DNA from: Planctomycetota bacterium
Lineage (GTDB): Bacteria > Planctomycetota > JACOTG01 > JAJDCM01
NCBI GenBank assembly: GCA_029260825.1
Contig: JAJDCM010000382.1
Coordinates: 1,221-65,220, forward strand
Direction of reading: 5' to 3'
DNA: 64,000 nucleotides
Part shown: piece by piece, positions 5,615 to 40,839 of the stretch
Position numbering within the stretch: position 1 is the first letter of the stretch
How the letters are laid out: every line of letters begins with the position of its first letter
Notes under the pieces: model-generated
The model's input: the letters and a program-made list of their open reading frames with translations, nothing else
What the model was told of the DNA's origin: nothing
Database searches by the model: none
Translations under genes and position numbers: made by a program

Positions 5615-5671
5615 TTCTTCCTTAGCAACCTTTGAAGATAGAAGACTTGAGCCCGATCCGGCGCAGATGAC

Positions 5672-6577
5672 TCATGAGTTCGTCGTCACTCGGGCACGAA
5701 GACTTTGGAGTCGAAAGGATCTGAGGCTCGCCAGGGTGCCAAAGCCGGCTCCCAGCAGACCAATGCCGGCTCCACCAAAAGAGCCGACCCAGGTCATTAT
5801 CTTAGGAGAAATGATGCCGTGCGCAACCTCGAGTTGAACGGCGGCCATGCCAAGAAGAAAGATGGCCATGAGAAGCTGGAGGAAATACACGCCTCGAACC
5901 CTGAAAAGCCGATGTCGCTCCATCTCACGAGCGAGCTCCTCCCCGGCCGGCCCGGACTCCGGGAGGGCTTGAGGCGCCAGGACTTCTCGACGGACCCAGA
6001 ACATCGAAATCAGCAAGGTGACGAGTCCGCAGCCCTCGAAAAGGAAAGCGTTCAGCACCCAGTTTCCCGCAGTTTCCGAGGTGACGGTGACCATCCTCCA
6101 GATGAAAAGAGAAAGGGCCAGGACAGCGAGGAGCGGGAAGAGGACTCGGGACCACCCGGGGAGGTCCTTCGCGACAGACCGCCTGGTGAGGCTTGCCGTT
6201 CGAACCGAGCCGGTCGGGGTCACGGGCTCGATTCCCTTCTTCGACCGAGAAGCTCTCTCGTGCTTGCGGATGAGCACAAAGGAAAAGGGCCACCAGATCC
6301 CGTGAAACACGAGAAGCTGGGAAGCATTGAGGATCGATTTTCTGTCTCCTGCTTGGATCGCCTCGGCGTCGAGAATCATCCAAACAAGGAAGGCTACTCC
6401 GGCGAGCCCGGTTGCCAGGAACAGCCGGGTTCGATCGGGTGCAATGCACTGTTCCACTTCATCGCGAACCTCTCTTTTCAGGTTGCGACGGGCCCTACTT
6501 AGATAGAAAACCGGTACCAGGCTCACACCAAGAAGAATTCCAAATTGAATCATCGAGTGAATAAGAATGGGGCTCAT
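5672..6577 (-). CDS. Polytopic membrane protein of unknown function, 4-nt overlap with the upstream GntR regulator gene
   Basis: 301 aa with several hydrophobic segments. ATGA start/stop overlap with the GntR gene at 6574-6577. The plus-strand alternative 5705..6502 is low-complexity and charged. Confidence 0.6.
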   Translation of the reverse strand: MSPILIHSMIQFGILLGVSLVPVFYLSRARRNLKREVRDEVEQCIAPDRTRLFLATGLAGVAFLVWMILDAEAIQAGDRKSILNASQLLVFHGIWWPFSFVLIRKHERASRSKKGIEPVTPTGSVRTASLTRRSVAKDLPGWSRVLFPLLAVLALSLFIWRMVTVTSETAGNWVLNAFLFEGCGLVTLLISMFWVRREVLAPQALPESGPAGEELAREMERHRLFRVRGVYFLQLLMAIFLLGMAAVQLEVAHGIISPKIMTWVGSFGGAGIGLLGAGFGTLASLRSFRLQSLRARVTTNS

Positions 6578-6963
6578 GCCTGGATCTCCTTTGCCCAGCG
6601 ATCGATTTCTTTTGTGAGTAGCTTCTTCACCTCTGGAAACGGAAGCCCGGAAAGTCGCGCTTCGGTAAGAATCTCCCGAAGCTTTGCCTGGATCCGGCCT
6701 CGAGTCGATTCCCCCTCCCCTGAGGGGCCATCCGTCGCCACCGTCACGCCCTTTCCACGTCCCACCTGAAGTAGCCCCTCGTCCCGAAGCTTCCGGTAGG
6801 CTCGGGCCACGGTGTTGAAGTGGATTCCAAGATCCCCGGCGAGCTGCCGGACCGAAGGGAGAGAATCTCCCGGGCCGAGCTCTCCTCGAGCAATGGTCTC
6901 CCGAATGCCCCGTCGGATTTGCTCCTCAAGGGGGATCGAACTTTCAAGGTCAACGGTGAGCAT
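6574..6963 (-). CDS. GntR-family (YtrA-like short) transcriptional regulator
   Basis: 129 aa with a winged HTH (LPSVRQLAGDLGIHFNTVARAYRKLRDEGLL) and a short C-terminal effector region. Confidence 0.8.
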   Translation of the reverse strand: MLTVDLESSIPLEEQIRRGIRETIARGELGPGDSLPSVRQLAGDLGIHFNTVARAYRKLRDEGLLQVGRGKGVTVATDGPSGEGESTRGRIQAKLREILTEARLSGLPFPEVKKLLTKEIDRWAKEIQA

Positions 6964-7084
6964 GGTTACGCTGTATCATCTATTGGTACAGTACGTCAAG
7001 CAGCTTGGAAGGTTCAAAAATCGGGCCAAAATCGGCGGCGGGAGCGTATTGACGAATCCGGGGGAAAGAGAAAACAATAGACCC

Positions 7085-8983
7085 ATGGTGAATCCAGGCA
7101 TGACCGAGGCAGCACTTCATGTGCAAAAAGGACCGGCGCGACCCAGCCGGGTGCTCCTTCGTGAGGATCTCCTGTTAATCGGGCGATCCGAGGACTGCGC
7201 TCTCATCTTGCTGGATGATACCGCCTCCCGTCACCATGCCAGCGTCGAGCGGACCGAGGATGGCTTTCGTTTGAAAGACCTGGGATCTTCAAATGGAACC
7301 TTCGTGAACGGAGACATGAATCCAGATCGACTCCTCATCGAGGGGGATGAGATCCGGATCGGCTCGGTTCACCTTCAATTCAGCCTGAAGGCCGGGCGGA
7401 AAACGATCATCGTCGAGGAAAAAGAGGAGAGTCCGACAACTCTGAGGGTTGAAACCTCCATACCCGGCCCCACGTTTGATCCCACCGAGGGCGATGACGA
7501 TGACGGGCTTCTTCGACGACTGAAAACACTTTATCGGGTAAACACGGCTCTTTCCCGGTGCCTCGATACGAACGAACTCCTCCTCGAGGTCTTTCGGAGT
7601 CTGACGGAGGTCCTTCCGTTTGAGCGAGGCGCGGTCTGGTACAGCAAGGGGGGGCAAACAAGACCTTTGATCTACTACCAGCGAGAAGACGAAAATCATC
7701 GCCCGTTTCAGGTGAGCTCGACTCTTCTCCAGCGAGTGCTGGTGAGCAAGGAAGGCGTCCTCGTTCGGGATGTTCTCGAGGACGAAAAACTCCGAGATCG
7801 CCGGAGTGTTCTTCTGGGTAGTACGCTCTCCATCGCTGCAGTGCCTCTTCTGGTTGAGGGCAATTGCATGGGAGTTCTCTACATCGACTCAACCCTGGTC
7901 GATTCCTTTTCTCCCGAGGATCTCGAATTGCTCCTGGGCCTGGCATGTCCCACCGGGCTGGCGATCCGCAACGCGGAAACTTTCACCCGAAAAGACCAGG
8001 AAGCTCATCGACTTCGCCAGGAGCTTACGACTCACCACCGAGCCATCGGTGATTCTCCCGAATTCAAGGAGGCGCTTTCCCTCACCGAGAAGGTGGGGCC
8101 GACGGACACCACCGTCCTCCTGCTCGGAGAGACCGGAACAGGTAAGGAGATTCTTGCCCGGACCATCCACAATCTGAGCACCCGAAGAGAAGGGCCCTTT
8201 GTCCCGGTGAATTGTGCGGCGATTTCTCCCTCCCTCCTTGAAAGTGAACTCTTCGGTCACGTCAGTGGAGCATTCACCGGAGCTCATCGGGACGCTCCGG
8301 GTCAGTTCAGGCTGGCTGACGGCGGCACATTATTCCTGGATGAAGTCGGGGAAATGCCCCCCGAGCTCCAATCAAAGCTTCTTCGAGTTCTCGAGGAGCG
8401 CGAAGTTCGTCCGGTGGGCGCCGATCGCACCGTGGCGATCGACATCAGGATTCTTGCCGCCACGAACCGGGATCTCCAGGGCGACATCGAAACCGGTGGC
8501 TTCCGCGCCGACCTCTACTATCGCCTGGGTGTGATGCAGATCAACATTCCACCTCTTCGGGAGCGAACGGGAGACATCTTGCTTCTCGCTCGATCCTTCC
8601 TTGACGCATTGCGAGGCGGCCTGGGGAAGCATCCTTCTGGCTTCTCTTCGGAGGCAGCAGAGATCCTAGAGCGGTATCCTTGGCCGGGAAATGTGCGAGA
8701 GCTTCGCAATGTGGTGGAAAGAGCATCCGTTCTTGCCGCAGGAGAGCAGATCAAACCGAGAGATCTCCCCGATGATGTCCGTCGGAGCATCCAGGGCGCT
8801 GGGGGTGGGCGCTTCGATGACCCGGCCGGGGATGAACCCATCTTCTCTCTCAAGGAAGCGGAAAAGATCGCCATTGAGAGGGCCCTCCAGAAGACCGGGG
8901 GGAGAAAGGGGGAGGCTGCCAAACTCCTCGGTACTTCCTGGCCAACCCTGACGAAGAAGATCCGAGAATACGGGCTGGATTGA
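7085..8983 (+). CDS. Sigma-54-dependent transcriptional activator with N-terminal FHA and GAF domains (FHA-GAF-AAA+-Fis HTH)
   Basis: FHA region LIGRSEDCALILLDDTASRHHASVE...LGSSNGTFVNG. AAA+ region GETGTGKEILARTIHNLSTRREGPFVPVNCAAI...GAFTGA. C-terminal HTH KGEAAKLLGTSWPTLTKKIREYGL. Start chosen at ATG 7085 because the track ORF start at 6812 overlaps the divergent GntR gene. Confidence 0.85.
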   Translation: MVNPGMTEAALHVQKGPARPSRVLLREDLLLIGRSEDCALILLDDTASRHHASVERTEDGFRLKDLGSSNGTFVNGDMNPDRLLIEGDEIRIGSVHLQFSLKAGRKTIIVEEKEESPTTLRVETSIPGPTFDPTEGDDDDGLLRRLKTLYRVNTALSRCLDTNELLLEVFRSLTEVLPFERGAVWYSKGGQTRPLIYYQREDENHRPFQVSSTLLQRVLVSKEGVLVRDVLEDEKLRDRRSVLLGSTLSIAAVPLLVEGNCMGVLYIDSTLVDSFSPEDLELLLGLACPTGLAIRNAETFTRKDQEAHRLRQELTTHHRAIGDSPEFKEALSLTEKVGPTDTTVLLLGETGTGKEILARTIHNLSTRREGPFVPVNCAAISPSLLESELFGHVSGAFTGAHRDAPGQFRLADGGTLFLDEVGEMPPELQSKLLRVLEEREVRPVGADRTVAIDIRILAATNRDLQGDIETGGFRADLYYRLGVMQINIPPLRERTGDILLLARSFLDALRGGLGKHPSGFSSEAAEILERYPWPGNVRELRNVVERASVLAAGEQIKPRDLPDDVRRSIQGAGGGRFDDPAGDEPIFSLKEAEKIAIERALQKTGGRKGEAAKLLGTSWPTLTKKIREYGLD

Positions 8984-9186: not shown

Positions 9187-10239
9187 ATGAACGAAAACAA
9201 GAACCTACATGCTCGCGTGACCCGAAACGCGGAGGATACTGCCAGCTTCGACACGAGTTCCCTGGTGGGGCTTGAGCTTGGCGGCTATCGACTGGACGAG
9301 CCGATTGGACAGGGAGGCATGGGATCCGTTTTTAGAGCAACCCAGCTCTCCCTCGGCCGCTCGGTTGCGGTGAAAGTACTCGCCCCCGAGCTTTCGGGGC
9401 GCGATCAGATGGTGTCCCGATTCAAGCGAGAGATCAAAACACTCACAAGCCTTAGCCACCCCAACATCGTTGCTCTTCTCGACGGAGGATTCGACAGCGA
9501 CAAGGGGCTTTATTACTACGTGATGGAGTTGATCGACGGAGTGACGGTTCGAGACGTGATCGACGGGGGCGGTCTTGAACCGGCAAAAGCGTTGCTCATG
9601 GTTCCCAAGATCTGCGATGCCCTGGAATATGCCCACCAGATGGGAGTCGTTCACCGGGACGTGAAGCCAGCCAACATCCTGTTGGACCGGGAAGGTCGGG
9701 TCAAGATCGCAGACTTCGGTCTTTCTCGTCTGATCGAAGAAAAGGAAGATGAAGGCCGGATCACCCGGACTCAGCAGGTCATGGGCACCGTCGAGTACAT
9801 GGCCCCCGAACAGCGAGAGGGGGCCAAGCACATCGATCATCGGGCAGACATCTACTCTCTCGGGGTTGTTTTCTACGAGCTGCTCACCGGTGAGCTCCCG
9901 ATCGGTCGGTTTGATCCCCCGAGTAAAAAGGTGGAAGTGGACGTGCGGCTGGATGACGTTGTTTTGCGGGTTCTCGCCAAAGATCCCCAGCGGCGCTACC
10001 AACGTGCAAGCGAGGTGGCCGTCGACGTACGAAGTCTCGAGTCGGACAGCGCCGTCGCCAGTCCGGGAACCAGTGGATCTCATCAGGAGGAGGAAGACAT
10101 GGAACACGCAATCTCGACCCCGTCCCGAGTCTCAGGATGGGCGATCGCCAGCTTCGTCCTGGCTCTTTTGATCATCGTGCCGTTTGTGCTGGGGATGCTC
10201 GCACTGTTGTTCCTGGGAGCAACCGTTCAGAGCGGATAA
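9187..10239 (+). CDS. Hanks-type Ser/Thr protein kinase (active; C-terminal TM anchor)
   Basis: Glycine loop GQGGMGSVF, VAVK lysine, HRDVKPANILL catalytic loop, DFG, APE. C-terminal hydrophobic segment. Confidence 0.85.
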   Translation: MNENKNLHARVTRNAEDTASFDTSSLVGLELGGYRLDEPIGQGGMGSVFRATQLSLGRSVAVKVLAPELSGRDQMVSRFKREIKTLTSLSHPNIVALLDGGFDSDKGLYYYVMELIDGVTVRDVIDGGGLEPAKALLMVPKICDALEYAHQMGVVHRDVKPANILLDREGRVKIADFGLSRLIEEKEDEGRITRTQQVMGTVEYMAPEQREGAKHIDHRADIYSLGVVFYELLTGELPIGRFDPPSKKVEVDVRLDDVVLRVLAKDPQRRYQRASEVAVDVRSLESDSAVASPGTSGSHQEEEDMEHAISTPSRVSGWAIASFVLALLIIVPFVLGMLALLFLGATVQSG

Positions 10240-15756: not shown

Positions 15757-17928
15757 TCAATCGAGCACCTTCCTGCGCCACTCCCGGTGGAGACGCTCGG
15801 CCTGCCGGGGGCGTGTGCGGGGGTGGATGACGGTAAGAGGTTCCCTCTCGCGAAGCCGTGCTTGCCCGCCCAGAGCCAGAAGAGCCGCGCCGATGATGGT
15901 GCTTTCCTGAACCGGGCTGACAAGAAGTGACGCGCAGAGGGTGTCCGCAAGGATCTGAAGAAGATGAGGATTCCTGGAAAGTCCGCCTCCCACGGTCAGA
16001 CGAGATCGATCGGGAACGACTCGTCCAAGCCGGATCAAATTCTCCCGCACCAGGTATGCGATCGACTCCAGGAGGCCCCGAGCAAGCCCGGGAGCGTTCC
16101 GACGTCCTCGGACAACAAACCGACGCCTCGGATCCCAGAAGGGAGATCCAAGGCCTTCCTGAGCGGGAAGGACGTAGGTCCCTGCCTCTCCTCGAGCGGC
16201 GAGCTCCCCAAGACTCAACTGGTCCGCATCGTTCTGGGCGAGGAAGCCCTGGATGGAAGGTACAACCCGGTGAACCGTGCCCTCGATCAGATACTCCGCC
16301 TTACCACCCTGGCTCCAAGCAATACTGGAAAGAAGGCCGGGCACGCGATGGAGCACCGAACCCGTGTTGGCAAGTAAGAATCCACCGGTCCCCAGATTCA
16401 GGCAGGCGGGACCGGTCTGGACTTCTCCAGAACCGAATGCGGCGAGCGCAGCCTGCTGGTCTCCGATCTGGCAACGGGTGACAAGCTTTCGGCCCCCCAG
16501 CATGATCTCGGCCGGGGATCCGCAAGTATCTGCAATCTCCGGGAGGATTGACGCCGGGATGCCAAAAAGGCTCAGAAGTTCCGGATCCCAGTCTCGTCGA
16601 CGCAGGTTCATGAGAAGCATGCGGGCGGCAAGGGTTGGGTCCGTGCGGAAGATGCGCCCCTCGGACCATCGCCACAAAAGATACGTGGGAAGGGGTCCAC
16701 AGAGAAGTCGATCCGAGTGAACTCGCGTCCGACGAAGCTTCCAGGCAATCTTGCTGGCTGAATAACTGGGAGACAGGAGAAGACCGGTTCGATCTCGGAC
16801 TAGATGGGCTGAGTCCTTGCGGGCGGCAACCAGACGACGTCCTCGAGTGCACCGCCAGCTCGGAGCATCCCCGATCGGCTTTCCTGTTTCCCGATCCCAC
16901 AGAACAAAAGTCGATCTCTGGGACGCGAGTGCCACGGTGCGTACGTTTTCTTCCTCGAGCAGGAGTCGAGAGGCCTCTCGGGTTACGAGACGCTCCACGG
17001 TTTCGGCATCGAGGCCAAGCTCACCCTTGGGGCCGCGAAGCGTGGGGAGCGGTTTCCTCACCAGCTTGAGCGGAACTCCCTGATGGGAGACAAGCGCAAT
17101 TTTTACCTCCGTTGACCCCAGATCGATGGACAGCACAGGGGCCCTTGCCCGGCTCGGACGAGGGGGAGACGAACGACGTTGATCGCCGACCAGCTCCACC
17201 CAACGGATCATGCGGCCCGGGTCATCGGTGATGACTCCATCCACTCCCACTCGATGCAGTCGTGTCAGCTCCTGTCGAGTGTTCACCGTATAGGGCAAGA
17301 TCTTGCGTCCTTGTCGATGCTGATTCTTGACCCAGCTCTTGGTCACGTGAGAGCGATTCGGAACGACGAAGGAAGCCTGAATCTCAGTGGCCAATCGATT
17401 GAGAGAAAAAGAAGGACGGGAAGGATAGACGATTCCGAGCTGGAGATCAGGAGCGTTTCTTGCAGCCTCTTGAACCATCGCCGGTTCCGCCGACGTCAAC
17501 AACGCCCGGTTGAAACCACCGGTTCTCCTCAGCGCCAGAAGGACCTCCCGGACAAGAGGCTCGGCGTGGGACGGGGGACCCTTGAGTTCCACATGTACGT
17601 CGACATCCGGCCGCAGAATGGCGAGAGCTTCATCAAGAGACAACATCCTTGTTCGACGCCAGGTCTGGTTCTTGCGAAAGTCCGGTCGGACTGAGAGCTC
17701 GCAGCATTCGGCAAGGGTCATCTCCCGGATCGAGCCGTTGTGGCCACAGACCCGCCGAGTGGTTGCATCATGGTGGACCAGAGCTCGGTCGTCCGCGGTC
17801 AGCTGAACATCGAATTCGACCGCATTCACCCCTGCGGCAAGGGCTAACGAGAACGAAGGAGCGGTGTTCTCCGGAGCGCGTGCGGCCGCACCGCGGTGGC
17901 CGACGACGATCAATCCGCCCTTGGTCAT
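15757..17928 (-). CDS. Fusion protein: glycerophosphodiester phosphodiesterase (GDPD) N-domain + FGGY-family glycerol-kinase-like C-domain
   Basis: N-terminus VVGHRGAAARAPENT...EFDVQLTADDRALVHHD (GDPD). C-terminus SIDLGSTEVKIALV...WDRETGKPI...LLLSPSYSASKIAWKL...GGGLSRNPHLLQILAD...IIGAALLA (FGGY/GlpK). Confidence 0.75.
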   Translation of the reverse strand: MTKGGLIVVGHRGAAARAPENTAPSFSLALAAGVNAVEFDVQLTADDRALVHHDATTRRVCGHNGSIREMTLAECCELSVRPDFRKNQTWRRTRMLSLDEALAILRPDVDVHVELKGPPSHAEPLVREVLLALRRTGGFNRALLTSAEPAMVQEAARNAPDLQLGIVYPSRPSFSLNRLATEIQASFVVPNRSHVTKSWVKNQHRQGRKILPYTVNTRQELTRLHRVGVDGVITDDPGRMIRWVELVGDQRRSSPPRPSRARAPVLSIDLGSTEVKIALVSHQGVPLKLVRKPLPTLRGPKGELGLDAETVERLVTREASRLLLEEENVRTVALASQRSTFVLWDRETGKPIGDAPSWRCTRGRRLVAARKDSAHLVRDRTGLLLSPSYSASKIAWKLRRTRVHSDRLLCGPLPTYLLWRWSEGRIFRTDPTLAARMLLMNLRRRDWDPELLSLFGIPASILPEIADTCGSPAEIMLGGRKLVTRCQIGDQQAALAAFGSGEVQTGPACLNLGTGGFLLANTGSVLHRVPGLLSSIAWSQGGKAEYLIEGTVHRVVPSIQGFLAQNDADQLSLGELAARGEAGTYVLPAQEGLGSPFWDPRRRFVVRGRRNAPGLARGLLESIAYLVRENLIRLGRVVPDRSRLTVGGGLSRNPHLLQILADTLCASLLVSPVQESTIIGAALLALGGQARLREREPLTVIHPRTRPRQAERLHREWRRKVLD

Positions 17929-18068: not shown

Positions 18069-21000
18069 CTACTCGGCGAGAAGATCCCGATATCGGAGGG
18101 ACTCGATCATTTCTCCCCGACTTTCGTAAAGACTTATGAGTGCGCGAATTGCCGTAAAAGTACGGTCGTGGTTCGGACCCAGGGCTGCGAGGAGACTTTT
18201 GTATCCTGACAGGAGGCTCGTCTGGGCTGCATCGAAGCGTTTTTGCTCGAGAAGGCAGGTCCCCAGATTCACTCGGGCAAAGCCGATCCTCCAGTCATCT
18301 TCCGGGAGTGCGGCAATCAGCCCTTCCAGAGACTCATTGAGCAGCATCTCGGCCTCCTCGGTTCGACCCAGATGAAAATAGCAGGCGGCAAGGTTGTTGA
18401 GAGTGAGATACGTCGCAGGATCTTCCTCGCCTCGGTGAGCCTTCCGCAGGACGAGTACCTTCTCGTAAATTCTTGAAGCATGCTTCACATTGCCTTGCTC
18501 CCTCAGAATGGAAGCCAGGGTTCCTCGGGCCGACAGGATCTCCGGGTGATAGGACATCTCACCCGTGTCAAGGCTTCCCAGGTTCAATGTTCGCAGAGCG
18601 GCCTCCGCCTTCACGAAATTTCCCTGGGCCTTGTAGACAAGAGCAAGTGAATGGCGGTGCTTGATCGTCTGGAGATGGGAGGACCCCAGGATGCGGTCAC
18701 AATCCTTGACGACGTTCAGGAATGCATTTTCTGCTCGTCCAAGATCTCCTTTTCGATAAAGAACCATCGCTCTTGAGGCTCGGACGGAAAGAAGTGCAGG
18801 GTGCTCGTAGCTGAACAGGTCAAGAAGACCCACCTGCCCGGTCGTGAAATGCTCTTCTGCCTCTTCAAGATGGCCCATCTTGAGAAGAAGTTCTCCGAGT
18901 GAGATCCGGCAAAGCAGAGTCAGTGGGTCGGAGGGACCGAGGGTCTTTGTCCTGACCTGAAACACCTTCCGGCGCTGTGACAGCGACTCGTCAAAGTTGT
19001 CGAGCTCGTCGAGGCACCTGGCGTGGTCGAGAATGGCCTCCTGGGCCCGGTGATTTTCAAGACCCAGACCCCTCGTCAGGCTTTCAGCACTCTGCTTCAG
19101 AATGATGGCAGCCTCTTCGGTTCGCTTCCGGTGCAACAAGTTGATCCCGAGGTTCCGTTGCACTTCCCGAACCATCGGATGATGAGGAGCAAGCTGGGCC
19201 AAGGATCTCTCCAGAATGTCCTTGAGGTCTTGCTCCGGGTTCCCTCCCTCGGATGAAACCGAGTTTCGTGCCTTCAGAAGGTCCAGTTCAAGGAGGATGG
19301 GATCGGCCAGGGCCGGACGATTGTTACACCAGGCTATGGCCTTTCTTAATGCTTCCGTTGCTTGCGAACCTTCACCCCGATCCTGATGCAATTTCACCAG
19401 GTTGAAGTACAGACGAACCGGGAGGGTGGTCCCGGTGTCAGGGCAAGAATTCAGCTTCTCAAGCCCGAGATTCCATTGTTCGATGGCGTGTCGTGGATTT
19501 CCCCGGGCAAGCGCAATACGACCGAGGCTCTCGGAAACCCGGACCGCAAGGAGACTACTCTTGCCGGCGATTTGCTTCAGTTCTTCAAGAACTCCCTTGG
19601 CCTCTTCAAACTTCCCGATCTCCAGAAGCACATCGGCAAGATTCTCCAGGACCATCGGTTCATGAGGGTCAGGGGAACCTGCGGCCCCGGAAACATTGTT
19701 CACGCGAACAAGCTCGTAGGCCTCTTTCAGAAATCCTTCTGCATCCTGGAGGCGAAGTTCGAGCACCAGAACATCGGCGAGATCGCAAAGCTCCTTCACC
19801 CGGCTCTTGTGATCAACGGTCTTCTCGGGTCTATTCTCCTGAGTAAGAAGCCGGCGCAGCTCTTCGGCTTCATGCAGGAGAGCGTTCCTCTTCCCATCCT
19901 TGGATGAACAAGCCACGTCTACGAGATGATCGGCGAGAACCCGACGCGTGTCCCGAATGAAAGATCGAGGGTCATCTCCTGTGGATTTCAGAAGACGTAA
20001 GGATTCCCTCAACAGGCCGATTCCCCGGTCCGACTCGCCGCAGCGAAGATAAGCCTTTCCGAGAATCGAATAGGTGATTCCTCGGGAGACCTCATCGTTG
20101 GCAAATCTGATGCTGGCCTGGTCGCTCGCCAGAGTTGTAAGTTCCGATAGAGTCAGCCGGCGATTCCCTGGGCCGTCGCTCTCTCCCAGGACATCGGAAA
20201 GGAAGGAAAGGATCCCGTCGGTCCGACGACTGTCCGTCCGTGCTTTCTGGAGTTCTTGACCGAGTTCAGCCAATTCGGTCATCAACCCCGCCGCTTTCAT
20301 CTCTTCGGCTTCAAATCGATGTTCGGCATCAACCCGAGAAGCCCGTGCGGAGTCCAGAGTCTTTTCCGCCTGCTGGTTCTTCGATTGTTCATGAAAAAGA
20401 AGAGTCACGAGGCTGGCCAAAACGAGCATTACACTTCCAGTGATCGAGCCAGCAAGGAGAGCCAATTTGGGATTCCGGCGACGAAAGAGAGAAATCCGCT
20501 GGAAAGGAGTGACGGGACGATCCGGTAGAGGCACCTTCCTTTCATGGAGGGAGACATCCCGGGCAAGGTCGGCGACGCTCGCATGGCGTCTCCGGCGATC
20601 TTTGGAGAGCGCCCTCGTCGCGATGAAGTCAAGGTCACCGGCGAGCCTGGCCGAAAGGCCGCCCTCACTCAGACCTCTTCGTTTGGCGATCTGACCCCAG
20701 TCTTCAGTAGGTGAACCTACTTGCTGGCTCGGTTTGGGTGGAGGTTGTCGAAAAAGCTGAGAGGCGGACATCTCTGTCCCTGACTCCGGCTTTTGGGCGG
20801 AAAAGATCCCGACGCCACAGATCATCTCATAGAGAACGACTCCCAGGGCGTGAACGTCCACCCGAACGTCAAGGAACTTATGAGGGTCGAGATGCTCCGG
20901 GCTGAGTCCGTCCAGGTCGGGGAAGTATTTGATAATATCAATTGCTGGTAGATGCTCGGTCTTTCTGGCAAGCCAGCTTGCGGGCCCCATTCGTTGGACT

Positions 21001-21527
21001 CTCGGAGTCGGTTTGTTGTCGCTGCTGACGACGGCAATATCTTGACTTCTCAGGCCACCATGGATGATCCCCTTCAGGTGAGCATGTTGGATTGCTTCGC
21101 AAAGTCGGAGAAAGAGAGCGCACCGATTCGAGAGCGAAACATGCTGGGTATCACAAAACTCCTGGAGTGTTGGCGCCTGAATCCAGTCCGAAATGTAGTA
21201 GGGCTGTTGCTCCTGGGTCAACCCGGATCCGAGGTTTCGTGCAAGTCCCGGGTGGCGGATGTTCGAGAGACGTTCGCTGTGTTGCGCAAAGAAAGCTCGA
21301 TCGACGGGATCGTCGAGCCGGGCGGTGAGAACATCCACCCTGACGGTTTTTGGGGTGTTTCTTGCTCCCTCCACTTCACCTCGCCAGACAGAGAATCCTG
21401 GTGTCTCCTCGATCATCTCAAGAAGATTCACGTCCTCGATCTTTGGCGCAGGTGTTCTCGCGGCGGCGGTGATGCCTCCATCACGGCCGCCTTTCTCAGA
21501 TGGGTGGCTCTGGCCCTTGAGCCCCAT
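18069..21527 (-). CDS. Large pseudokinase-TM-TPR protein (Hanks-kinase-like N-domain with degenerate catalytic motifs, single TM, long TPR array)
   Basis: Kinase-like region with HRDLKPxN replaced by HGGLRSQD, no DFG, and an altered beta3 Lys (RVDVL). Activation/APE-like LGVVLYEMICG is retained. A TM segment LLAGSITGSVMLVLASLVTLLF is followed by about 750 aa of TPR-like repeats. Confidence 0.8.
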   Translation of the reverse strand: MGLKGQSHPSEKGGRDGGITAAARTPAPKIEDVNLLEMIEETPGFSVWRGEVEGARNTPKTVRVDVLTARLDDPVDRAFFAQHSERLSNIRHPGLARNLGSGLTQEQQPYYISDWIQAPTLQEFCDTQHVSLSNRCALFLRLCEAIQHAHLKGIIHGGLRSQDIAVVSSDNKPTPRVQRMGPASWLARKTEHLPAIDIIKYFPDLDGLSPEHLDPHKFLDVRVDVHALGVVLYEMICGVGIFSAQKPESGTEMSASQLFRQPPPKPSQQVGSPTEDWGQIAKRRGLSEGGLSARLAGDLDFIATRALSKDRRRRHASVADLARDVSLHERKVPLPDRPVTPFQRISLFRRRNPKLALLAGSITGSVMLVLASLVTLLFHEQSKNQQAEKTLDSARASRVDAEHRFEAEEMKAAGLMTELAELGQELQKARTDSRRTDGILSFLSDVLGESDGPGNRRLTLSELTTLASDQASIRFANDEVSRGITYSILGKAYLRCGESDRGIGLLRESLRLLKSTGDDPRSFIRDTRRVLADHLVDVACSSKDGKRNALLHEAEELRRLLTQENRPEKTVDHKSRVKELCDLADVLVLELRLQDAEGFLKEAYELVRVNNVSGAAGSPDPHEPMVLENLADVLLEIGKFEEAKGVLEELKQIAGKSSLLAVRVSESLGRIALARGNPRHAIEQWNLGLEKLNSCPDTGTTLPVRLYFNLVKLHQDRGEGSQATEALRKAIAWCNNRPALADPILLELDLLKARNSVSSEGGNPEQDLKDILERSLAQLAPHHPMVREVQRNLGINLLHRKRTEEAAIILKQSAESLTRGLGLENHRAQEAILDHARCLDELDNFDESLSQRRKVFQVRTKTLGPSDPLTLLCRISLGELLLKMGHLEEAEEHFTTGQVGLLDLFSYEHPALLSVRASRAMVLYRKGDLGRAENAFLNVVKDCDRILGSSHLQTIKHRHSLALVYKAQGNFVKAEAALRTLNLGSLDTGEMSYHPEILSARGTLASILREQGNVKHASRIYEKVLVLRKAHRGEEDPATYLTLNNLAACYFHLGRTEEAEMLLNESLEGLIAALPEDDWRIGFARVNLGTCLLEQKRFDAAQTSLLSGYKSLLAALGPNHDRTFTAIRALISLYESRGEMIESLRYRDLLAE

Positions 21528-21869
21528 ATCGATCTCCTATCTTCCCTGACAAAGGGGTCAGCTGCTGGGTCTACCCCTCGGACCCAGTCCAGTATGAACA
21601 AAGCGATGGGAGACTGGCAATCAATTTGTTTATCTCGGGGAGAGATCGGAGGGAGGAGGATAGGGTCCTTTCTTCATTCAGGTTCACCACTTACGCTTCT
21701 GTGCTGGCTGACTGAAGAAAGTCGTATAACTTCCTATCTAGCGGGCTTCGGCTCCTCCAAGTGTTGCCTGAAGGGAGGATGCTGTCCTGGAGCGCTGAAA
21801 TCCGGACCGCTGAGGAAGGGGGCGAAATAGAGTAATTCTTTTATCGCCTTGCCCGGCAGGGAGTTTCGG

Positions 21870-22643
21870 TCAAAAAGAGTATTCTTTCCCCATTTCGACC
21901 ACGCTGATGTTGTCCCGTCCGAGGTTTTCGAGCTGCTCCATGATGGTGTCCCGATATTGAGGCTTCATGTGGACGATCTGAATCTTGACTCCGTCGACTT
22001 TGAGCTTTTTCAGCTCTTCGTCAAGAGAATGGGGGGTCAGGTGCCGGGCCACCTGGGCCAGCCCCTCCATTTCGTTTGGATAGGAAACGTCGATGAAGAT
22101 GGATTTCAGATTCTTGGCCTGATTGCAGAAGTCCCACATCCGATCCGTGCGGTAAGTGTCGGACGTGAAGCAAAAAGAGCTCTCCTTGGCCTGAAGAACC
22201 AAGGCGTGGGTCGGAATAATATGGCTTGTCGTGATCGGAGTGATCGTGAGTCCGTTGATCTCGAACGACTTTTCCTCTTCAATCTCGACGTATTCAAGAC
22301 CTTTTCCCGAGCCTTGCAAAAGATCGATCCGGTCAAAACGGGGCCAGATCAGGTCGTTGAAGATGTGTTTCTTCAGGCTCGCGATCACCGTTTTGGATCC
22401 GTAGATACGAAACGGTTCATCCAGGAACGGGAAGACCTCGGAAACAAAGAGGGGCAACGTTGCCACGTGATCAATATGCTCGTGAGTCACGACAACGTTT
22501 CGAATCTTTGTCTGCTCAGCAAGGGGAACAGCAAGTCCCAGGCTTCCACCGTCGATCGCCAGAGAGCGATTGACCAGGATGGTCGTGAGCGTCTGCAACC
22601 ACTTCGTGTTCTGAAAATGGCTGGGAAGCAATTTGACTTTCAT
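21870..22643 (-). CDS. Metallo-beta-lactamase-fold hydrolase, class II 3',5'-cyclic-nucleotide phosphodiesterase-like
   Basis: HxHxDH motif (VVVTHEHIDHV) and the N-terminal GG loop of MBL enzymes. It lies 62 nt downstream of the cyclase gene on the same strand. Confidence 0.6.
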   Translation of the reverse strand: MKVKLLPSHFQNTKWLQTLTTILVNRSLAIDGGSLGLAVPLAEQTKIRNVVVTHEHIDHVATLPLFVSEVFPFLDEPFRIYGSKTVIASLKKHIFNDLIWPRFDRIDLLQGSGKGLEYVEIEEEKSFEINGLTITPITTSHIIPTHALVLQAKESSFCFTSDTYRTDRMWDFCNQAKNLKSIFIDVSYPNEMEGLAQVARHLTPHSLDEELKKLKVDGVKIQIVHMKPQYRDTIMEQLENLGRDNISVVEMGKEYSF

Positions 22644-22705
22644 AGTTCCTCAGGAATGGCATGCCGTTCCCCGTGGGGGCGGAAGAGACGTGCCCAAGCC
22701 TCGTC

Positions 22706-24268
22706 TTACTTGGCAAAGACCTCATAGATCCGAACCGGTTTCTGTCGCCCTTTCACCTGGATCTCATGAATAAATTTGCCTTCGAATTCTTCTTTGGCCC
22801 TGTTCCAGGACTCCTCGGCCACGGCGATGCCCGATTCCGTTTCTTGCTTGGAAAGCCGTTCCGATACATTGACCGGGTCACCGATGACGGCATATTCCAG
22901 GCGATGTCTCGGACCAATGTTGCCAGCGATCACGTGCCCCGTATTGATGCCGATCCGGAGAGCGAAAGCTCGCTCCGGCGTCGATGCGTTGAATTCATGG
23001 ACTCGACGCATGAGCTCCTGGGCAGCCCTCACGCCGCATATCTCGTGCTGATCCACTTCCAAGGGAGCATTGAAGACAGCCAGGACTGCGTCCCCGATGT
23101 ACTTATTGACGTGACCCTTGTGCGCAAAGACCGCATCGGCCGACATTTCATAGAAACTGTTCAACAGCCCGTGGATTCCGGTTTCCCCGAGCTTTTCCGT
23201 CAACCCGACCGAGTTGCGAATGTCGGCGAACAACAGGGTGACTTCTTTTCGGCCGGTTACGAGCTTCCCCTCGTTCTTCATCAGAAGCTCAACCACATCC
23301 GGCGAGTGGTACTGGCCCAGACTATTTCGGAGCCGCTCTTCCTTCTCAAGCTTGATTCGAAGAGCCAGAAGATTGGCAATACCACACAAAAGAGCCTGAT
23401 CTTCACGAGAGAAAGGAAACGCCTGATTGGAACTCTCCAGGTAAATAGCTCCATGAGATGTCTCGTGATCCCAGAGGGGAACACAGAGAACGGAACGAAT
23501 CTGGTCCAGAATAATACTTTCCATGTTCTGGAACCGGGGATCCGTCGTGGCATCGCTTGTCAGGGTCGCTACATGTTCGTCAAAGGCCCGTTTGAGAATC
23601 GACGTGCTGTAACCTTTGGGTTCATCACTGAGGAACCCGTCATACCGGTCGTAATGAACCTGGGCCGAAAAGGCCTGGGTTTTCTGGTCTCGCAAGAAGA
23701 GGATTCCTCGGTCGGCCGTCATGACCTCAAAAATGGAGAGCATGACAAGACGTGTGAGATGGTCCAGGTCTCCCTGCTGGCAAAGCTTCTTCGAGATCTG
23801 ATAGAGCGAGAAGAACATCTGGGAACCCTTGCTCGTATCTCCGATCCCGGAAAGGGTGGTCTCTGCCGCCGGAGGAGGAATCGACATCGAGGCCTGGCTG
23901 TGCAAACTGAATTCCTGCAGCACCTCTTCCGCATCCGATTCAATCTTTGGACCGCTGGGCTCCGCCGGCTCGCTCTCGGAGACATCCCCCTCAAAGACAA
24001 GTTCGACTTTGCCGATCCGAATCGTATCTGCGGCTCTTAGTTCTGATTTTGTTACCGGGGACTCGTTGAGGAGGGTCCCGTTGAGACTCTGGAGATCTTC
24101 GACCGTGTAGCGTCCGTCTTCGAATTTGATGCGACAGTGCTTCCTCGAGAGAAACGGCTGATTGACCGGAAGGTCGCAATCAGGATCTCGACCAATGATG
24201 ATCGGGTTCGGACCCAACGCGATTTCCTGCTGGATTACGCCGTCGGTTTTCAGTACCAGTTTAGCCAT
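22706..24268 (-). CDS. Class III adenylate/guanylate cyclase with N-terminal FHA and GAF domains
   Basis: FHA IIIGRDPDCDLPV...SRKHCRI...LQSLNGTLLN. Cyclase motifs VTLLFADIRNSVGLTE, KYIGDAVLAVFNAP, LRIGINTGHVIAGNIG, EYAVIGDPVNVSERL. Start taken at MAKLVLKTDG (24268). Confidence 0.85.
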   Translation of the reverse strand: MAKLVLKTDGVIQQEIALGPNPIIIGRDPDCDLPVNQPFLSRKHCRIKFEDGRYTVEDLQSLNGTLLNESPVTKSELRAADTIRIGKVELVFEGDVSESEPAEPSGPKIESDAEEVLQEFSLHSQASMSIPPPAAETTLSGIGDTSKGSQMFFSLYQISKKLCQQGDLDHLTRLVMLSIFEVMTADRGILFLRDQKTQAFSAQVHYDRYDGFLSDEPKGYSTSILKRAFDEHVATLTSDATTDPRFQNMESIILDQIRSVLCVPLWDHETSHGAIYLESSNQAFPFSREDQALLCGIANLLALRIKLEKEERLRNSLGQYHSPDVVELLMKNEGKLVTGRKEVTLLFADIRNSVGLTEKLGETGIHGLLNSFYEMSADAVFAHKGHVNKYIGDAVLAVFNAPLEVDQHEICGVRAAQELMRRVHEFNASTPERAFALRIGINTGHVIAGNIGPRHRLEYAVIGDPVNVSERLSKQETESGIAVAEESWNRAKEEFEGKFIHEIQVKGRQKPVRIYEVFAK

Positions 24269-33428: not shown

Positions 33429-34952
33429 CTACGACTTTGACCCGAGGCCCATGAGAAACTCAGCGTTCGTCCCTGTCTTTCGCATCTTGTCGGTGAGGAG
33501 TTCCATGGCTTCAACCGGGTTCATCTCGTTGAGAACCTTTCTCAGCAACCAGACCAGCGTCAACTCATCCTTCTGGAGAATGAGCTCTTCCTTTCGAGTT
33601 CCCGAGCGGTTGATGTCGATGGCCGGCCAGATTCTCTTGTCTGCCAGTCGACGATCAAGATGAAGCTCCATATTGCCGGTGCCTTTGAACTCTTCGAAGA
33701 TGACCTCGTCCATGCGACTACCGGTGTCGATGAGCGCGGTGGCAAGGATGGTGAGGCTGCCTCCTTCTTCAATGTTGCGGGCGGCTCCAAAGAAGCGTTT
33801 GGGCTTTTGTAGAGCGCTGGCGTCCACACCACCGGAGAGGATCTTTCCGCTGTGTGGCACCTCCGAATTGTAGGCCCGTCCGAGGCGAGTGATGGAGTCG
33901 AGCAAGATCACCACGTCCCGACCGAACTCAACCATGCGCTTTGCTTTTTCGATGACCATCTCGGCGACCTGAATGTGCCTTGCCGACGGCTCATCGAACG
34001 TCGAGCTGATGACTTCTCCGCGAACCGAGCGCTCCATGTCGGTCACTTCCTCGGGGCGCTCATCGATCAGCAAGACGATCAGGTCAACCTGGGGGTGATT
34101 GGTGGAGATGGAGTTGGCGAGCTTCTGCAGAAGGATCGTCTTTCCCGTTCTCGGCGGTGCAACGATCAACCCTCGCTGCCCCATGCCAATGGGTGTGACA
34201 AGGTCCATGATTCGCATTTCGATCTCGTCAGAAGCCGTCTCGAGAGCGATCCGGTTTTCCGGATAAAGAGGGGTGAGATCATCAAAGACAATCTTGCCGA
34301 TCAGCCGATCCGGTTCTTCATAGTTGATTGCCTCAACCTTGAGGAGGGCGAAATACTTCTCGCTCTCTTTCGGGGGGCGAATCTGGCCGGAAACCATGGA
34401 TCCAGTTCGGAGACCAAACCGCCGTATCTGGGACGGAGACACGTAAATGTCGTCCGGACAGGGCATGTAGTTGTAGTCAGGCGAGCGCAAGAATCCAAAC
34501 CCATCAGGAAGAACCTCAAGAACTCCTTCGCCATACATGAGCCCGCTGGTGTTGATCCGGTCTTTCAGGATCTTGAAGATCAAGTCCTGCTTCTTGAGGC
34601 CGGAATACTCCTCGATTCCTTCCTGCTTGGCGGTCTCGATGAGCTCGGACATGGTCATCCGCTGGAGCTCGGAGATGTGAAGCTCACCTTTTTTTGCCGC
34701 TTCGTACCGGGCATTGGGATCTCCCGGCCGGCGCTCCGTTTTTGGCGCTTCCTCTTCCACCGGCAACTCCAGTTGCTCCGGTTTGGGATCACCATCCTTG
34801 GAGGCCTTGGCGAGATCTTCTTTCTTGTCAGCAACTACCGCGCTGACCGTCTTTTCCTTGGTCGTCTTCTTTCTTGCTTTGGTCGTGGTGACCTTGCTCT
34901 TGGCGGGCATCGTAACTCTCCAATGTTTGTGCGGAAGGTTTGGGGGCACCAA
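33429..34952 (-). CDS. rho: Transcription termination factor Rho with Lys-rich N-terminal insertion
   Basis: RNA-binding domain ([17 protein letters not shown]), Walker [22 protein letters not shown] loops. The true start may be MPAKSK at 34910. Confidence 0.9.
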
Positions 34953-39432: not shown

Positions 39433-40839
39433 ATGAAGATCGATTTATCGCAAAAGCTTCAGATGCGCCAGGAGCTGCGGTTAGCACCGCAGATGATCCA
39501 GGCCATTGAGATTTTGCAGATCCCCGTGGCTGAGCTTCGCGAAAGGATCGATCAAGAGCTCGAAATCAACCCTGTCCTGGAGATTGACGAGCGACCGAAA
39601 GAAACCTCATCAGATTCATCCAAGGAAGAGGCACCAACGCCAGAAGAGCTCAAACGCGAAGAGCGCTACGATGCGATGGACCGCTACCAGGATGACGATT
39701 TTGCCCGGCCATCCCGCCATATAGCGGGGGAGCGTGACCGCAAGCTCGAAGCCATGGCAAACCGAGAATCTCGACCGGAGACTCTTCAGGAACATCTCAT
39801 CCAGCAGGTCCACTTTCTCGATCTTTCTGAAGCGCACAAAGAACTCGCCCAGTTCATCATCAACAACATCAGTTCGACCGGCTACATGCTTTGCACACTC
39901 GACGAGCTGATGGACGCCGTAAAAGGAAAGAACGAATCAGACGATGTCAAAGACGTCCTGGAAGTCGTCCGTTCTCTCGATCCAGCGGGGGTGGGCGCCT
40001 TCGATCCTCGGGACTGTCTGCTTCTCCAAATTGATCGTTATGGACCGCACCGGGATATTGAACGCGATCTCATTTGTGATCATCTGGAAGACATCGAGTA
40101 CAACCGTTTCCCCAAGATCGCCAAAGCCACCGGGCAAGACATGGAGACGATCAAAGCGGCGATCGACTTCATCAAGTCTCTCAATCCTCGCCCCGGGTCA
40201 GCCTTTGGTGGGGAGGAACCTCAGTACATCGTTCCCGACGTCATCGTGGAAGATATCGACGGCCGCTACGAGATCCGGCTAGAAAACAGCTACATTCCCC
40301 CGCTTCGACTGAATTCGGCCTACAAAGGACTTGGCCGGGATAACGAAGCGTATGAATTCCTGAAGCGTAAGCACGAATCGGCCCGGTGGCTCATCGAGTC
40401 CATTCATCAGAGGCAAAATACGTTGCAGAAGATTTGCAGTGACATCTTCCGCATTCAGAAAGACTTCCTCGACAGGGGCCCAAACTTTCTTCACCCCTTG
40501 CGCATGCAAGAGGTGGCGGACAACGTTGGGGTTCATATCTCGACCGTGAGTCGTGCGATCGCGAACAAATACGTCCAGACTCCTCGCGGAATCTCGGCAC
40601 TTCGATCCTTCTTCACCGGAGCTACAAAGAGCCTCAACGGATCGGCTGTCGAATCCCAGGAAAGTGTTCGCCAGAAGCTCCAGGAGATGATCAACAACGA
40701 AGACAAACGATATCCTCTTTCCGACGAAGATATCCGCACCAAGTTCCGTGAGCAGGGAATCGACATCGCTCGCCGAACGATTACAAAGTACCGAAAAGCA
40801 TTGGATATCCCGTCGACGCGTCAGCGCCGTCAATATTGA
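39433..40839 (+). CDS. rpoN: RNA polymerase sigma-54 factor
   Basis: N-terminal activator-interacting region (LRLAPQMIQAIEILQ) and C-terminal RpoN box ARRTITKYR. Confidence 0.9.
   Translation: MKIDLSQKLQMRQELRLAPQMIQAIEILQIPVAELRERIDQELEINPVLEIDERPKETSSDSSKEEAPTPEELKREERYDAMDRYQDDDFARPSRHIAGERDRKLEAMANRESRPETLQEHLIQQVHFLDLSEAHKELAQFIINNISSTGYMLCTLDELMDAVKGKNESDDVKDVLEVVRSLDPAGVGAFDPRDCLLLQIDRYGPHRDIERDLICDHLEDIEYNRFPKIAKATGQDMETIKAAIDFIKSLNPRPGSAFGGEEPQYIVPDVIVEDIDGRYEIRLENSYIPPLRLNSAYKGLGRDNEAYEFLKRKHESARWLIESIHQRQNTLQKICSDIFRIQKDFLDRGPNFLHPLRMQEVADNVGVHISTVSRAIANKYVQTPRGISALRSFFTGATKSLNGSAVESQESVRQKLQEMINNEDKRYPLSDEDIRTKFREQGIDIARRTITKYRKALDIPSTRQRRQY

Follow-up and report, generated by a model that had tools for sequence, protein, structure and literature searches.

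Control of class III nucleotidyl cyclases by N-terminal sensor domains is exemplified by Anabaena CyaB1 and CyaB2, which are GAF-regulated, and by Synechocystis Cya1, an FHA-cyclase. In this class of cyclases, the position occupied by Lys or Glu is the dominant determinant of specificity. Termination of the cAMP or cGMP signal in bacteria has been poorly mapped beyond the class III CpdA/Rv0805 enzymes. For the class II phosphodiesterases (PDEs), the strict signature is HxHLDH (PMC9293780, PMC4320098), and the MBL-fold enzymes Rv1339, yeast PDE1 and Apyc1 are broad or dual in specificity (PMC9293780; Hobbs et al. 2022), Rv1339 also cleaving 2',3'-cNMPs (PMC9293780). Host homologues of Apyc1 have been raised as possible regulators of cNMP systems (Hobbs et al. 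2022). The locus described here lies in the window, i.e., the whole 64-kb stretch of DNA that was analysed, which comes from an uncultured and probably acidobacterial genome, and pairs an FHA-GAF-cyclase gene with the gene of a small MBL-fold hydrolase. With a probability of roughly two in three, we read the pair from its sequence as a unit for the synthesis and degradation of a cyclic nucleotide, most likely cAMP, under FHA/GAF control.

The cyclase and its specificity residues

The cyclase gene (22706..24268, minus strand) encodes a protein of 520 amino acids, in which Pfam found FHA, GAF and Guanylate_cyc domains, all above cut-off, in agreement with an earlier note on this DNA that had described an FHA-GAF class III cyclase. 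The 520-residue form begins at the ATG at 24268 and is the choice of the gene callers on an identical public contig; a longer form from a TTG at 24334 is possible. The FHA domain (residues 23-86; 24011..24202, minus strand) scored 70.7 bits, and the GAF domain (residues 167-305; 23354..23770, minus strand) scored 45.7 bits as GAF and 36.7 bits as GAF_2. The class III catalytic domain (residues 341-511; 22736..23248, minus strand) matched Guanylate_cyc (PF00211) at 76.2 bits (cut-off, 21.9), and its catalytic residues were assigned by alignment to CyaB (3r5g) and column counts over 120 homologues. It was found that the phosphothreonine-binding residues of the FHA domain, namely G26-R27, S41..H44 and N63-G64, are all canonical and are kept in 114-116 of the 116 aligned homologues, the exception being G64 (104/116). 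The FHA-GAF-cyclase architecture is common in metagenomes, where it forms more than 120 clusters; as far as could be found, this combination of FHA, GAF and cyclase in one protein is uncharacterised.

The earlier note had made its cyclase assignment turn on a pair of metal-binding aspartates, and both were found, D349 in the sequence FADIRN and D393 in YIGDAV, each present in all 120 homologues. The transition-state residues are N467 (120/120) and R471 (119/120), and K506 joins the metal, specificity and transition-state residues of the catalytic domain. The specificity pair consists of K389, the adenine-specifying lysine, and A460, the criterion for an adenylate cyclase being Lys together with Asp (class IIIa) or Thr (class IIIb). 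Of the 120 homologues, 108 have Thr at position 460, 9 have Ala and 3 have Ser, the clade of the window having Ala. Among solved structures, the best matches to the cyclase are the adenylate cyclases 6fht and CyaB (3r5g, E 3e-22). The 520-residue protein is probably, rather than certainly, an adenylate cyclase, because the catalytic residues and Lys389 are present, yet Ala460 stands where most relatives have Thr. Caution over cAMP versus cGMP, which had been voiced before, is justified by this very pair of residues.

The alternative that survives best keeps the same module but has it work with cGMP, or with a mixed or non-canonical cNMP, such that the alanine would make base selection less strict and the PDE would be of broad specificity. 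Formation of cGMP, or of a mixture, is conceivable given Ala460 in place of the common Thr and given that four members of the cyclase family carry a Glu/Ala pair resembling that of guanylyl cyclases; the broad or dual specificity of the characterised MBL-fold PDEs named above points the same way. Nonetheless, we regard this alternative as unlikely, considering that the adenine-specifying Lys389 is retained, that adenylate cyclases are its nearest relatives of solved structure, and that the Lys/Glu position is generally held to dominate over the second.

The compact MBL-fold hydrolase

The second gene (21870..22643, minus strand) encodes a cytoplasmic MBL-fold hydrolase of 257 amino acids, predicted to be a compact class II-like 3',5'-cyclic-nucleotide phosphodiesterase. 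Its metal-binding motif, H54-E-H56-I-D58-H59 (22467..22484, minus strand; in full, T53-H-E-H-I-D-H59), occupies invariant or nearly invariant columns of a 22-sequence alignment (A1), in which the ligands D31, H54, H56, D58, H59, H141 and D162 are invariant and H225 is nearly so. The best Pfam family was PF02112 (class II PDE), with 61.7 bits against a gathering cut-off of 23.7 in a partial match, the best stretch of which covers profile positions 81-172 of 340; by hmmscan, all 22 family members matched it. The generic Lactamase_B_2 (PF12706) scored below it (53.5 bits, cut-off 27), and the RNase Z models fell far under their cut-offs (TIGR02651, 36.6 against 292.95; NF002558, 37.5 against 315), so that the class II reading of the earlier note held against both a generic MBL and an RNase assignment. 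The NCBIfam scan of the hydrolase returned RNase Z, PhnP and RNase J matches only, all sub-threshold, and therefore gave no equivalog assignment; NF041851 ('cyclic nucleotide-degrading phosphodiesterase') reached 18.1 bits against a cut-off of 400.

Comparison with solved structures pointed in the same direction. When the profile of the hydrolase family was run against the PDB, yeast PDE1 ranked first, 13 bits over RNase Z, with 50.7 bits for PDE1 as against 33.9 for YhfI, and an E-value of 2.7e-3 for Apyc1. The PDE1 motifs FNDxIWPxF and HLTP/HLSP also align with the family. The AF2 model of the hydrolase is confident (pLDDT 94.8), and its top Foldseek match in the PDB was PDE1 (4ojv, E 3.6e-15), with YhfI (6kns) at E 2e-14; this search confirms the MBL fold and leaves PDE1, YhfI, RNase Z and Apyc1 unseparated (E 4e-15 to 4e-13). 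The strict HxHLDH signature is replaced by HEHIDH, with Ile for Leu at a position where family members carry I, M, L, S, N or A, and the [T/S]HxHxDH motif of the atypical class II PDEs is present as T53-HEHIDH. Owing to the partial PF02112 match and the HEHIDH motif, the hydrolase sits between the 'typical' and the 'atypical' class II PDEs. One family member (P0253) carries the start of a cNMP-binding domain. Overall, these sequence comparisons support a class II-like cAMP/cGMP phosphodiesterase. Such an enzyme had been called rare in bacteria, which is wrong for the compact clade, as it comprises at least 679 clusters at 50% identity (E<=1e-30).

Gene order and the loci of relatives

The cyclase gene ends with its stop codon at 22706-22708, and the hydrolase ATG follows at 22643 on the same (minus) strand. 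In the 62-nt spacer (22644..22705, minus strand), a GAGGA ribosome-binding site precedes the hydrolase start codon by 5 nt, and a scan of the spacer for a terminator-like hairpin found none; the 62-nt same-strand spacing to a 257-residue HxHxDH hydrolase, as earlier described, proved exact in its coordinates, the motif being HEHIDH. The two genes are presumably co-transcribed, and the pair is kept in relatives of 63-67% identity. After a further gap of 342 nt, also on the minus strand, comes the gene of a 1152-residue protein (18069..21527) with a kinase-like domain, a TM segment and a TPR array (Pfam: Pkinase, 37.9 bits, and many TPR families); this gap, together with a promoter-like site, separates it from the cyclase/hydrolase pair. 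The three genes are not chance ORFs, since they are long, have domain scores well above curated cut-offs, and encode proteins found identical or 63-67% identical on public contigs. Long antisense ORFs opposite the cyclase and the hydrolase (22661..24040 and 21849..22727, both plus strand) were treated as shadow ORFs. Rfam and tRNA scans returned nothing near the locus, and sigma-54 promoter patterns upstream of the cyclase and pseudokinase genes matched at or below chance level, with none suitably placed.

Alignment of the 1152-residue protein to three intact kinases revealed loss of its catalytic motifs, VAIK having become VRVD, with Asp in place of the β3 Lys, HRD having become HGG, and DFG having become RMG. 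By these residues it is a pseudokinase, as the earlier note had it, and probably an accessory or scaffold of the module; its gene is syntenic in a 63%-identical relative. In a Terriglobia locus (L009), an active STK with TPRs adjoins the PDE/FHA-cyclase pair, and the window itself contains an intact kinase at 9187..10239. The surroundings are those of a housekeeping chromosome (manC, GDPD-FGGY, rho, rpoN, lepA). Both rpoN and an FHA-GAF sigma-54 activator are encoded in the window. Searches of the 64-kb window with phmmer and a locally built HMM found no cNMP-binding receptor, PP2C or CHASE2 protein, a negative that is weak because the HMM is crude. The 'self-contained' or 'insulated' circuit that had been proposed was not borne out, as a cNMP-binding effector was not found in the window.

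Among 59 loci of hydrolase relatives, a class III cyclase lies within 1.5 kb in 20 and a cNMP-binding protein in 15, one or the other being present in 26; beyond 1.5 kb, the same loci contained no cyclase and one cNMP-binding protein. About half of the relatives have no cyclase or cNMP-binding neighbour. The linkage of PDE to cyclase takes at least five different arrangements. The first is a cyclase followed by the PDE, as in the window. In the second, the PDE is followed by an overlapping FHA-GAF-cyclase, adjoining a cNMP-binding MscS-like channel (L008), and in the third the PDE is convergent with an FHA-cyclase (the P0007 locus, L009, L066 and L057). The fourth, seen in about 11 betaproteobacterial loci, consists of an FHA gene, a CHASE2-cyclase and the PDE, flanked by CHASE2-STK, PP2C and cNMP-binding-rhodanese genes, and the fifth of a CHASE2-cyclase, a cNMP-binding gene and the PDE (L071, L077). 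The betaproteobacterial cluster, which has eight genes and is carried by, e.g., Dechloromonas and Propionivibrio, is conserved in its genes for the Ser/Thr kinase, PP2C and FHA protein as well as in those for the cyclase, PDE and cNMP-binding protein, and GAF-MshEN-T2SSE and GAF-HD_5 genes also occur. Many of the linked loci are not independent, since they come from this single betaproteobacterial lineage. A PDE neighbour was absent in all three sampled FHA-GAF-cyclase orthologues (37-47% identity), so that the pairing is clade-specific rather than general to FHA-GAF-cyclases. The comparative genomics of the relatives' loci supports the functional coupling and the Ser/Thr-phosphorylation control that had been suggested for this locus.

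The same neighbourhoods bear on the remaining alternatives. It would be distinctly improbable, in our estimate, that the MBL enzyme cleaves some other phosphodiester, e.g., pGpG or another breakdown product of c-di-GMP, a cyclic dinucleotide or a 2',3'-cNMP, and is only indirectly linked to the cyclase. Three relatives (P0262, P0280, P0284) are fused to GAF-HD_5 (HD-GYP-type) domains, the PDE genes of L005 and L018 directly follow GAF-HD_5 genes, the betaproteobacterial cluster contains the GAF-MshEN-T2SSE and GAF-HD_5 genes just mentioned, and Rv1339 also accepts 2',3'-cNMPs; however, class III cyclases (in 20 loci) and cNMP-binding proteins (in 15) accompany the PDE relatives at least as often, neither an HD-GYP nor a GGDEF gene adjoins the pair in the window, and the family closest in sequence is that of the cAMP/cGMP PDEs. 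Still less credence is given to mere chance adjacency, in which the cyclase would share no function with its neighbour, be that a generic MBL enzyme or a nuclease of the RNase Z/BN type. Two relatives are indeed named 'ribonuclease BN' by JGI, RNase Z models are the top NCBIfam matches, RNase Z structures are near in fold, and half of the hydrolase relatives are without signalling neighbours. A Pycsar-like antiphage system, i.e., a defence cyclase with a host Apyc1-like MBL regulator of the immune signal, is the least probable and was rejected: PADLOC PycC models match the cyclase domain (best, 67 bits), PF23023 (Anti-Pycsar Apyc1) appears in precomputed Pfam lists for the hydrolase family, and Hobbs et al. 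(2022) considered that host Apyc1 homologues might regulate cNMP systems, but the PycC matches reflect generic class III homology that PF00211 outscores, the hydrolase has no PADLOC match and no PF23023 match by hmmscan at E<=1, its family profile reaches Apyc1 only at E 2.7e-3, neither a TIR nor a TM effector lies beside the pair, the chromosome around the locus is a housekeeping one, and the FHA and GAF sensors indicate physiological signalling.

Proposed mechanism and comparison with known systems

In the preferred reading, that of a cAMP synthesis and degradation unit, the cyclase would dimerise via its class III domain and make cAMP from ATP. The output of the cyclase would be set by two inputs, namely the docking of the FHA domain on a partner protein that carries a phosphothreonine and the binding of a small ligand by the GAF domain. 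The 257-residue binuclear-metal MBL enzyme, translated from the transcript of the cyclase, would convert the cyclic nucleotide to the 5'-NMP, so that the signal would be short-lived and would scale with cyclase expression. The membrane-anchored pseudokinase-TPR protein would most likely be the docking partner of the FHA domain or a scaffold, and since a pseudokinase is unable to phosphorylate, some other kinase, e.g., that at 9187..10239, would have to supply the phosphate. We infer, in this scheme, the enzyme activities, the identity of the nucleotide, the FHA partner and a downstream effector that is not encoded nearby.

More tentatively, the locus may represent a widespread and undescribed cassette, in which a compact class II-like PDE and a class III cyclase are combined with phosphothreonine signalling (STK or pseudokinase, PP2C, FHA) and often with a dedicated cNMP receptor, for example a cNMP-gated MscS-like channel or a rhodanese protein that binds cNMPs. 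The FHA domain would be fused to the cyclase in Acidobacteriota and be a separate gene in Betaproteobacteria, and the kinase would have degenerated to a pseudokinase scaffold in the lineage of the window. A literature search yielded no account of the betaproteobacterial cluster or of an operon that joins an FHA-cyclase with a class II PDE. Both genes belong to known families, but the recurring signalling cassette of which, judging from relatives, their pairing forms part is apparently undescribed. For the window alone, the analysis mostly confirms what careful annotation yields. In environmental bacteria, Acidobacteriota and Betaproteobacteria among them, the compact MBL-fold PDE clade, with its hundreds of clusters, is suggested to serve certain class III cyclases as a dedicated off-switch, and the cyclase/PDE pairs are suggested to be wired to Ser/Thr phosphorylation through FHA domains. 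Testable enzyme pairs are thereby gained, and relatives hold complete kinase-phosphatase-FHA-cyclase-PDE-receptor sets in which the crosstalk of Hanks-type kinases with cyclic-nucleotide signalling could be studied.

With the typical class II PDEs of PF02112 (yeast PDE1, 4OJV; Vibrio fischeri CpdP; Dictyostelium PdsA; Myxococcus xanthus PdeE), the hydrolase has in common the MBL fold, the HxHxDH binuclear site and the downstream His, Asp and His ligands, and with PDE1 the FNDxIWPxF and HL(T/S)P motifs. It differs in being cytoplasmic and stand-alone, in having HEHIDH for HxHLDH, and in its length of about 257 amino acids as against about 340-370, good alignment to the Pfam profile being confined to its central third. 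The atypical class II PDEs (Rv1339, B. subtilis YhfI/YfhI, C. glutamicum CpdA; PMC9293780) are like it in length (about 250 amino acids), in the [T/S]HxHxDH motif, in PF12706 and in fold; they are, however, defined by the lack of a PF02112 match, which the hydrolase family has, and its profile is nearer to PDE1 than to YhfI, with NF041851 far under cut-off.

The window cyclase resembles P. aeruginosa CyaB (3R5G) in its class IIIb-like catalytic domain, its specificity lysine and its intact metal and transition-state residues. As in other multidomain class III adenylate cyclases, N-terminal sensors would control the C-terminal cyclase; unlike them, it has FHA and GAF together, Ala for Thr/Asp, and a paired PDE gene. 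Lastly, the Ser/Thr kinase-PP2C-FHA pathways (PpkA/PppA/Fha1 of type VI secretion; mycobacterial PknB-FhaA/GarA) likewise use a canonical phosphothreonine-binding FHA domain and show linkage to a Hanks-type kinase, with PP2C in the relatives of the present locus. In contrast to those pathways, the neighbouring kinase of the window is catalytically dead, and the output here would be a cyclase/PDE pair instead of a secretion system or a metabolic enzyme.

Gene layout and the FHA-GAF cyclase

Three consecutive genes lie on the minus strand: a 520-aa cyclase ORF (22706..24268, ATG start at 24268), a 257-aa hydrolase ORF (21870..22643; a probable phosphodiesterase, PDE below) and a 1152-aa kinase-like ORF (18069..21527). 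An alternative TTG start for the cyclase is possible at 24334, the 520-aa form being the gene callers' choice on the identical public contig. The cyclase-PDE gap is exactly 62 nt, with a GAGGA ribosome-binding site 5 nt ahead of the PDE ATG, and no terminator-like hairpin was found in it. The earlier note had described an FHA, GAF and cyclase gene followed 62 nt on by a same-strand 257-aa HxHxDH hydrolase, and the ORFs, the Pfam matches and the motif T53-H-E-H-I-D-H59 indeed confirmed every factual element of this; its overall interpretation is essentially supported as well. The antisense ORFs opposite the two genes, 22661..24040 (+), 459 aa, and 21849..22727 (+), 292 aa, were treated as shadow ORFs of a 54-57% GC genome, the public calls taking the minus-strand genes.

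The FHA (aa 23-86, 70.7 bits), GAF (aa 167-305, 45.7 bits) and Guanylate_cyc (aa 341-511, 76.2 bits) domains of the cyclase all scored far over the Pfam cut-offs, and the canonical residues for phosphothreonine binding are intact in FHA (G26-R27, S41..H44, N63-G64). The best solved relatives are adenylate cyclases, namely the phytochrome-AC fusion 6fht and Pseudomonas aeruginosa CyaB 3r5g (E 3e-22). Over an alignment of 120 homologues, the metal-binding D349 and D393 are invariant, the transition-state residues N467 and R471 occur in 120 and 119 sequences, and the adenine-specifying K389 in 116. The second specificity position is Thr, the class IIIb pattern, in 108 of the 120; it is Ala in the window cyclase and its close relatives that share the PDE neighbour. 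With K389 at one position and Ala at the other, the earlier caution that purine specificity cannot be read with confidence still stands. By its residues the window cyclase appears fit for catalysis, and adenylate cyclase is its probable identity, to which we assign about 70%. Four other family members (P0071, P0072, P0079, P0111) have Glu/Ala rather than Lys/Thr at the two base-specifying positions, a guanylyl-cyclase-like pair that makes them candidate guanylyl cyclases. Proteins that combine FHA, GAF and cyclase domains are common: they form >120 clusters at 90% identity, come from MAGs labelled Planctomycetota, Thermoanaerobaculia, Myxococcota and Acidobacteriota, and are annotated as adenylate cyclase by existing pipelines.

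The surroundings are those of an ordinary chromosome (manC, a GDPD-FGGY fusion, rho, rpoN, truD, lepA, tRNA-Leu), and LepA is ~75% identical to Acidobacteriota and Thermoanaerobaculia MAG proteins, with no nearer named relative, a weak pointer to an uncultured source resembling acidobacteria. A defence-system reading is not supported, the PycC matches being generic cyclase homology and the PDE having no PADLOC match. The 723-aa fusion at 15757..17928 (-), which joins a glycerophosphodiester phosphodiesterase (GDPD) to an FGGY carbohydrate (glycerol-type) kinase, is kept in a 63%-identical relative (locus L001, 756 aa). The Rho termination factor (33429..34952, -) has an N-terminal extension of ~90 aa ahead of its Rho_N domain.

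Kinase-like neighbour, shared input module and proposed mechanism

Alignment of the 1152-aa protein with three intact kinases revealed Asp for the beta3 Lys (VRVD), HGG for HRD, RMG for DFG and a degenerate glycine-rich loop. A hydrophobic segment and then a long array of TPRs come after the kinase-like domain. Judged by its kinase motifs the protein is a pseudokinase, in agreement with the earlier designation of a pseudokinase-TPR neighbour. In the 63%-identical relative, the orthologous protein still has an Asp in each of two motifs, HGD and, in place of DFG, DAP, which argues that the decay is recent. In the window, a 342-nt gap holding a promoter-like site (21620..21591) lies ahead of the pseudokinase gene, which may therefore have its own transcript.

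The window also encodes an FHA-GAF-sigma-54 activator with AAA+ and HTH_8 domains (6812..8983, +), an intact Ser/Thr kinase immediately 3' of it (9187..10239, +), and rpoN (39433..40839). The FHA-GAF cassettes of the activator and the cyclase are homologous (26% identity over ~360 aligned positions, E 2e-20); thus, one phospho-Thr/GAF input module seems to drive a transcription factor and the cyclase alike.

We infer a mechanism in which the co-transcribed cyclase would make cAMP, gated by FHA docking on phosphothreonine and by a GAF ligand, and the co-translated PDE would remove it. The membrane pseudokinase-TPR protein would probably serve as a scaffold or as the site where FHA docks, with its phosphate added in trans; the kinase at 9187..10239, 13 kb away, is a candidate for this step. 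The earlier description of the circuit as self-contained is not borne out, since phmmer and a crude, locally built HMM found no cyclic nucleotide (cNMP)-binding protein in the window.

Linkage of PDE relatives to cyclases in other genomes

Comparative genomics provided the strongest functional evidence for cyclase-PDE coupling. In 63-67%-identical relatives, the whole order of manC (divergent), cyclase, PDE, kinase-TPR and GDPD-FGGY is preserved, which by itself shows only shared ancestry. One PDE, at 51% identity, and a 310-aa FHA-cyclase without GAF are convergent, amid unrelated flanks, and the convergent form recurs in L057 and L066. In L009, a Terriglobia MAG locus, genes for an intact Ser/Thr kinase and for a TPR protein come after the convergent pair, which suggests that a kinase-TPR partner is an ancestral component of the module. 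The order is reversed in L008, where the PDE precedes an overlapping FHA-GAF-cyclase; the pair there adjoins a gene (4346..5737, -) for an MscS-like mechanosensitive channel that carries a cNMP-binding domain at its C-terminus and could plausibly be the direct effector there. L071 and L077 have a CHASE2-cyclase, a cNMP-binding protein and the PDE, in this order. About 11 betaproteobacterial loci (L019 1..11831; also L020, L023-L025, L027, L028, L030, L032, L079), from Propionivibrio, Dechloromonas, Gallionella, Nitrosomonadales, Methylophilaceae and Comamonadaceae MAGs among others, share a cluster of CHASE2-Ser/Thr kinase, PP2C, FHA protein, CHASE2-cyclase, PDE, cNMP-binding-rhodanese protein, GAF-MshEN-T2SSE ATPase and GAF-HD_5 phosphohydrolase, of which no description was found in the searchable literature.

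Of 59 loci each with a PDE relative, 20 had a cyclase ORF and 15 a cNMP-binding protein at a distance of up to 1.5 kb, 26 having at least one of the two; beyond that distance the same loci held no cyclases and one cNMP-binding protein. Since many linked loci belong to one lineage, the linkage amounts to ~5 independent events rather than twenty. At three sampled FHA-GAF-cyclase orthologues (37-47% identity), a PDE neighbour was absent from all three. A large FHA-4Fe4S-pyridine-nucleotide-disulphide-oxidoreductase is encoded near the PDE in two unrelated loci, L004 (319..3633, +) and L008 (1..1803, +, its N-terminus cut off by the contig end).

What these comparisons add is evidence that a compact PDE clade is coupled, time and again, to class III cyclases, to FHA/Ser-Thr-kinase signalling and to cNMP receptors, a cassette for which no description was found in the searchable literature. 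The cyclase and PDE genes each add a member to a family already known, and their relatives carry the labels adenylate cyclase and 3',5'-cyclic-nucleotide phosphodiesterase in standard pipelines.

Probable identity of the PDE

The earlier choice of a class II PDE over a generic metallo-beta-lactamase or RNase was upheld: PF02112 (class II cAMP PDE) scored 61.7 bits against a cut-off of 23.7, mainly over profile positions 81-172 of 340, versus 53.5 bits for Lactamase_B_2. All NCBIfam matches were sub-threshold, including RNase Z (~37 bits, cut-offs 293-315) and NF041851 'cyclic nucleotide-degrading phosphodiesterase' (18 bits, cut-off 400). In a 22-homologue alignment, D31, H54, H56, D58, H59, H141, D162 and H201 are invariant, H225 nearly so, and an FN..(I/V)(W)P.F motif is also conserved. 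The profile of this alignment retrieved yeast PDE1 as the top PDB sequence (E 1.4e-12, 50.7 bits), ahead of RNase Z (37.6 bits), YhfI (33.9) and Apyc1 (20.2), and the family's FNDxIWPD and HL(S/T)P motifs align with PDE1. A confident AlphaFold model from the alignment (pLDDT 94.8) again matched PDE1 best by Foldseek (E 3.6e-15), although the fold alone does not discriminate the class, since the E-values of YhfI, RNase Z and Apyc1 come within 10- to 100-fold of this.

The type had been thought rare, but an exhaustive profile search returned 679 clusters (50% identity) at E<=1e-30, rising to 1763 at E<=1e-10; almost all of these proteins stand alone and are 250-265 aa long. Three relatives (P0262, P0280, P0284; 782-794 aa) carry a C-terminal fusion to GAF and HD_5 (HD-GYP-type), P0253 ends in the beginning of a cNMP-binding domain, and GAF-HD_5 genes lie directly upstream of the PDE in L005 and L018.

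Thomson et al. 2022 (PMC9293780) divide class II PDEs into 'typical' (PF02112, HxHLDH) and 'atypical' (PF12706, [T/S]HxHxDH; Rv1339, YfhI, CpdA) enzymes. In size and motif the window protein fits the atypical group, whereas its sequence affinity and Pfam family are those of the typical one, whose strict HxHLDH signature it lacks; considering this mixed profile, we call it a predicted compact class II-like PDE.
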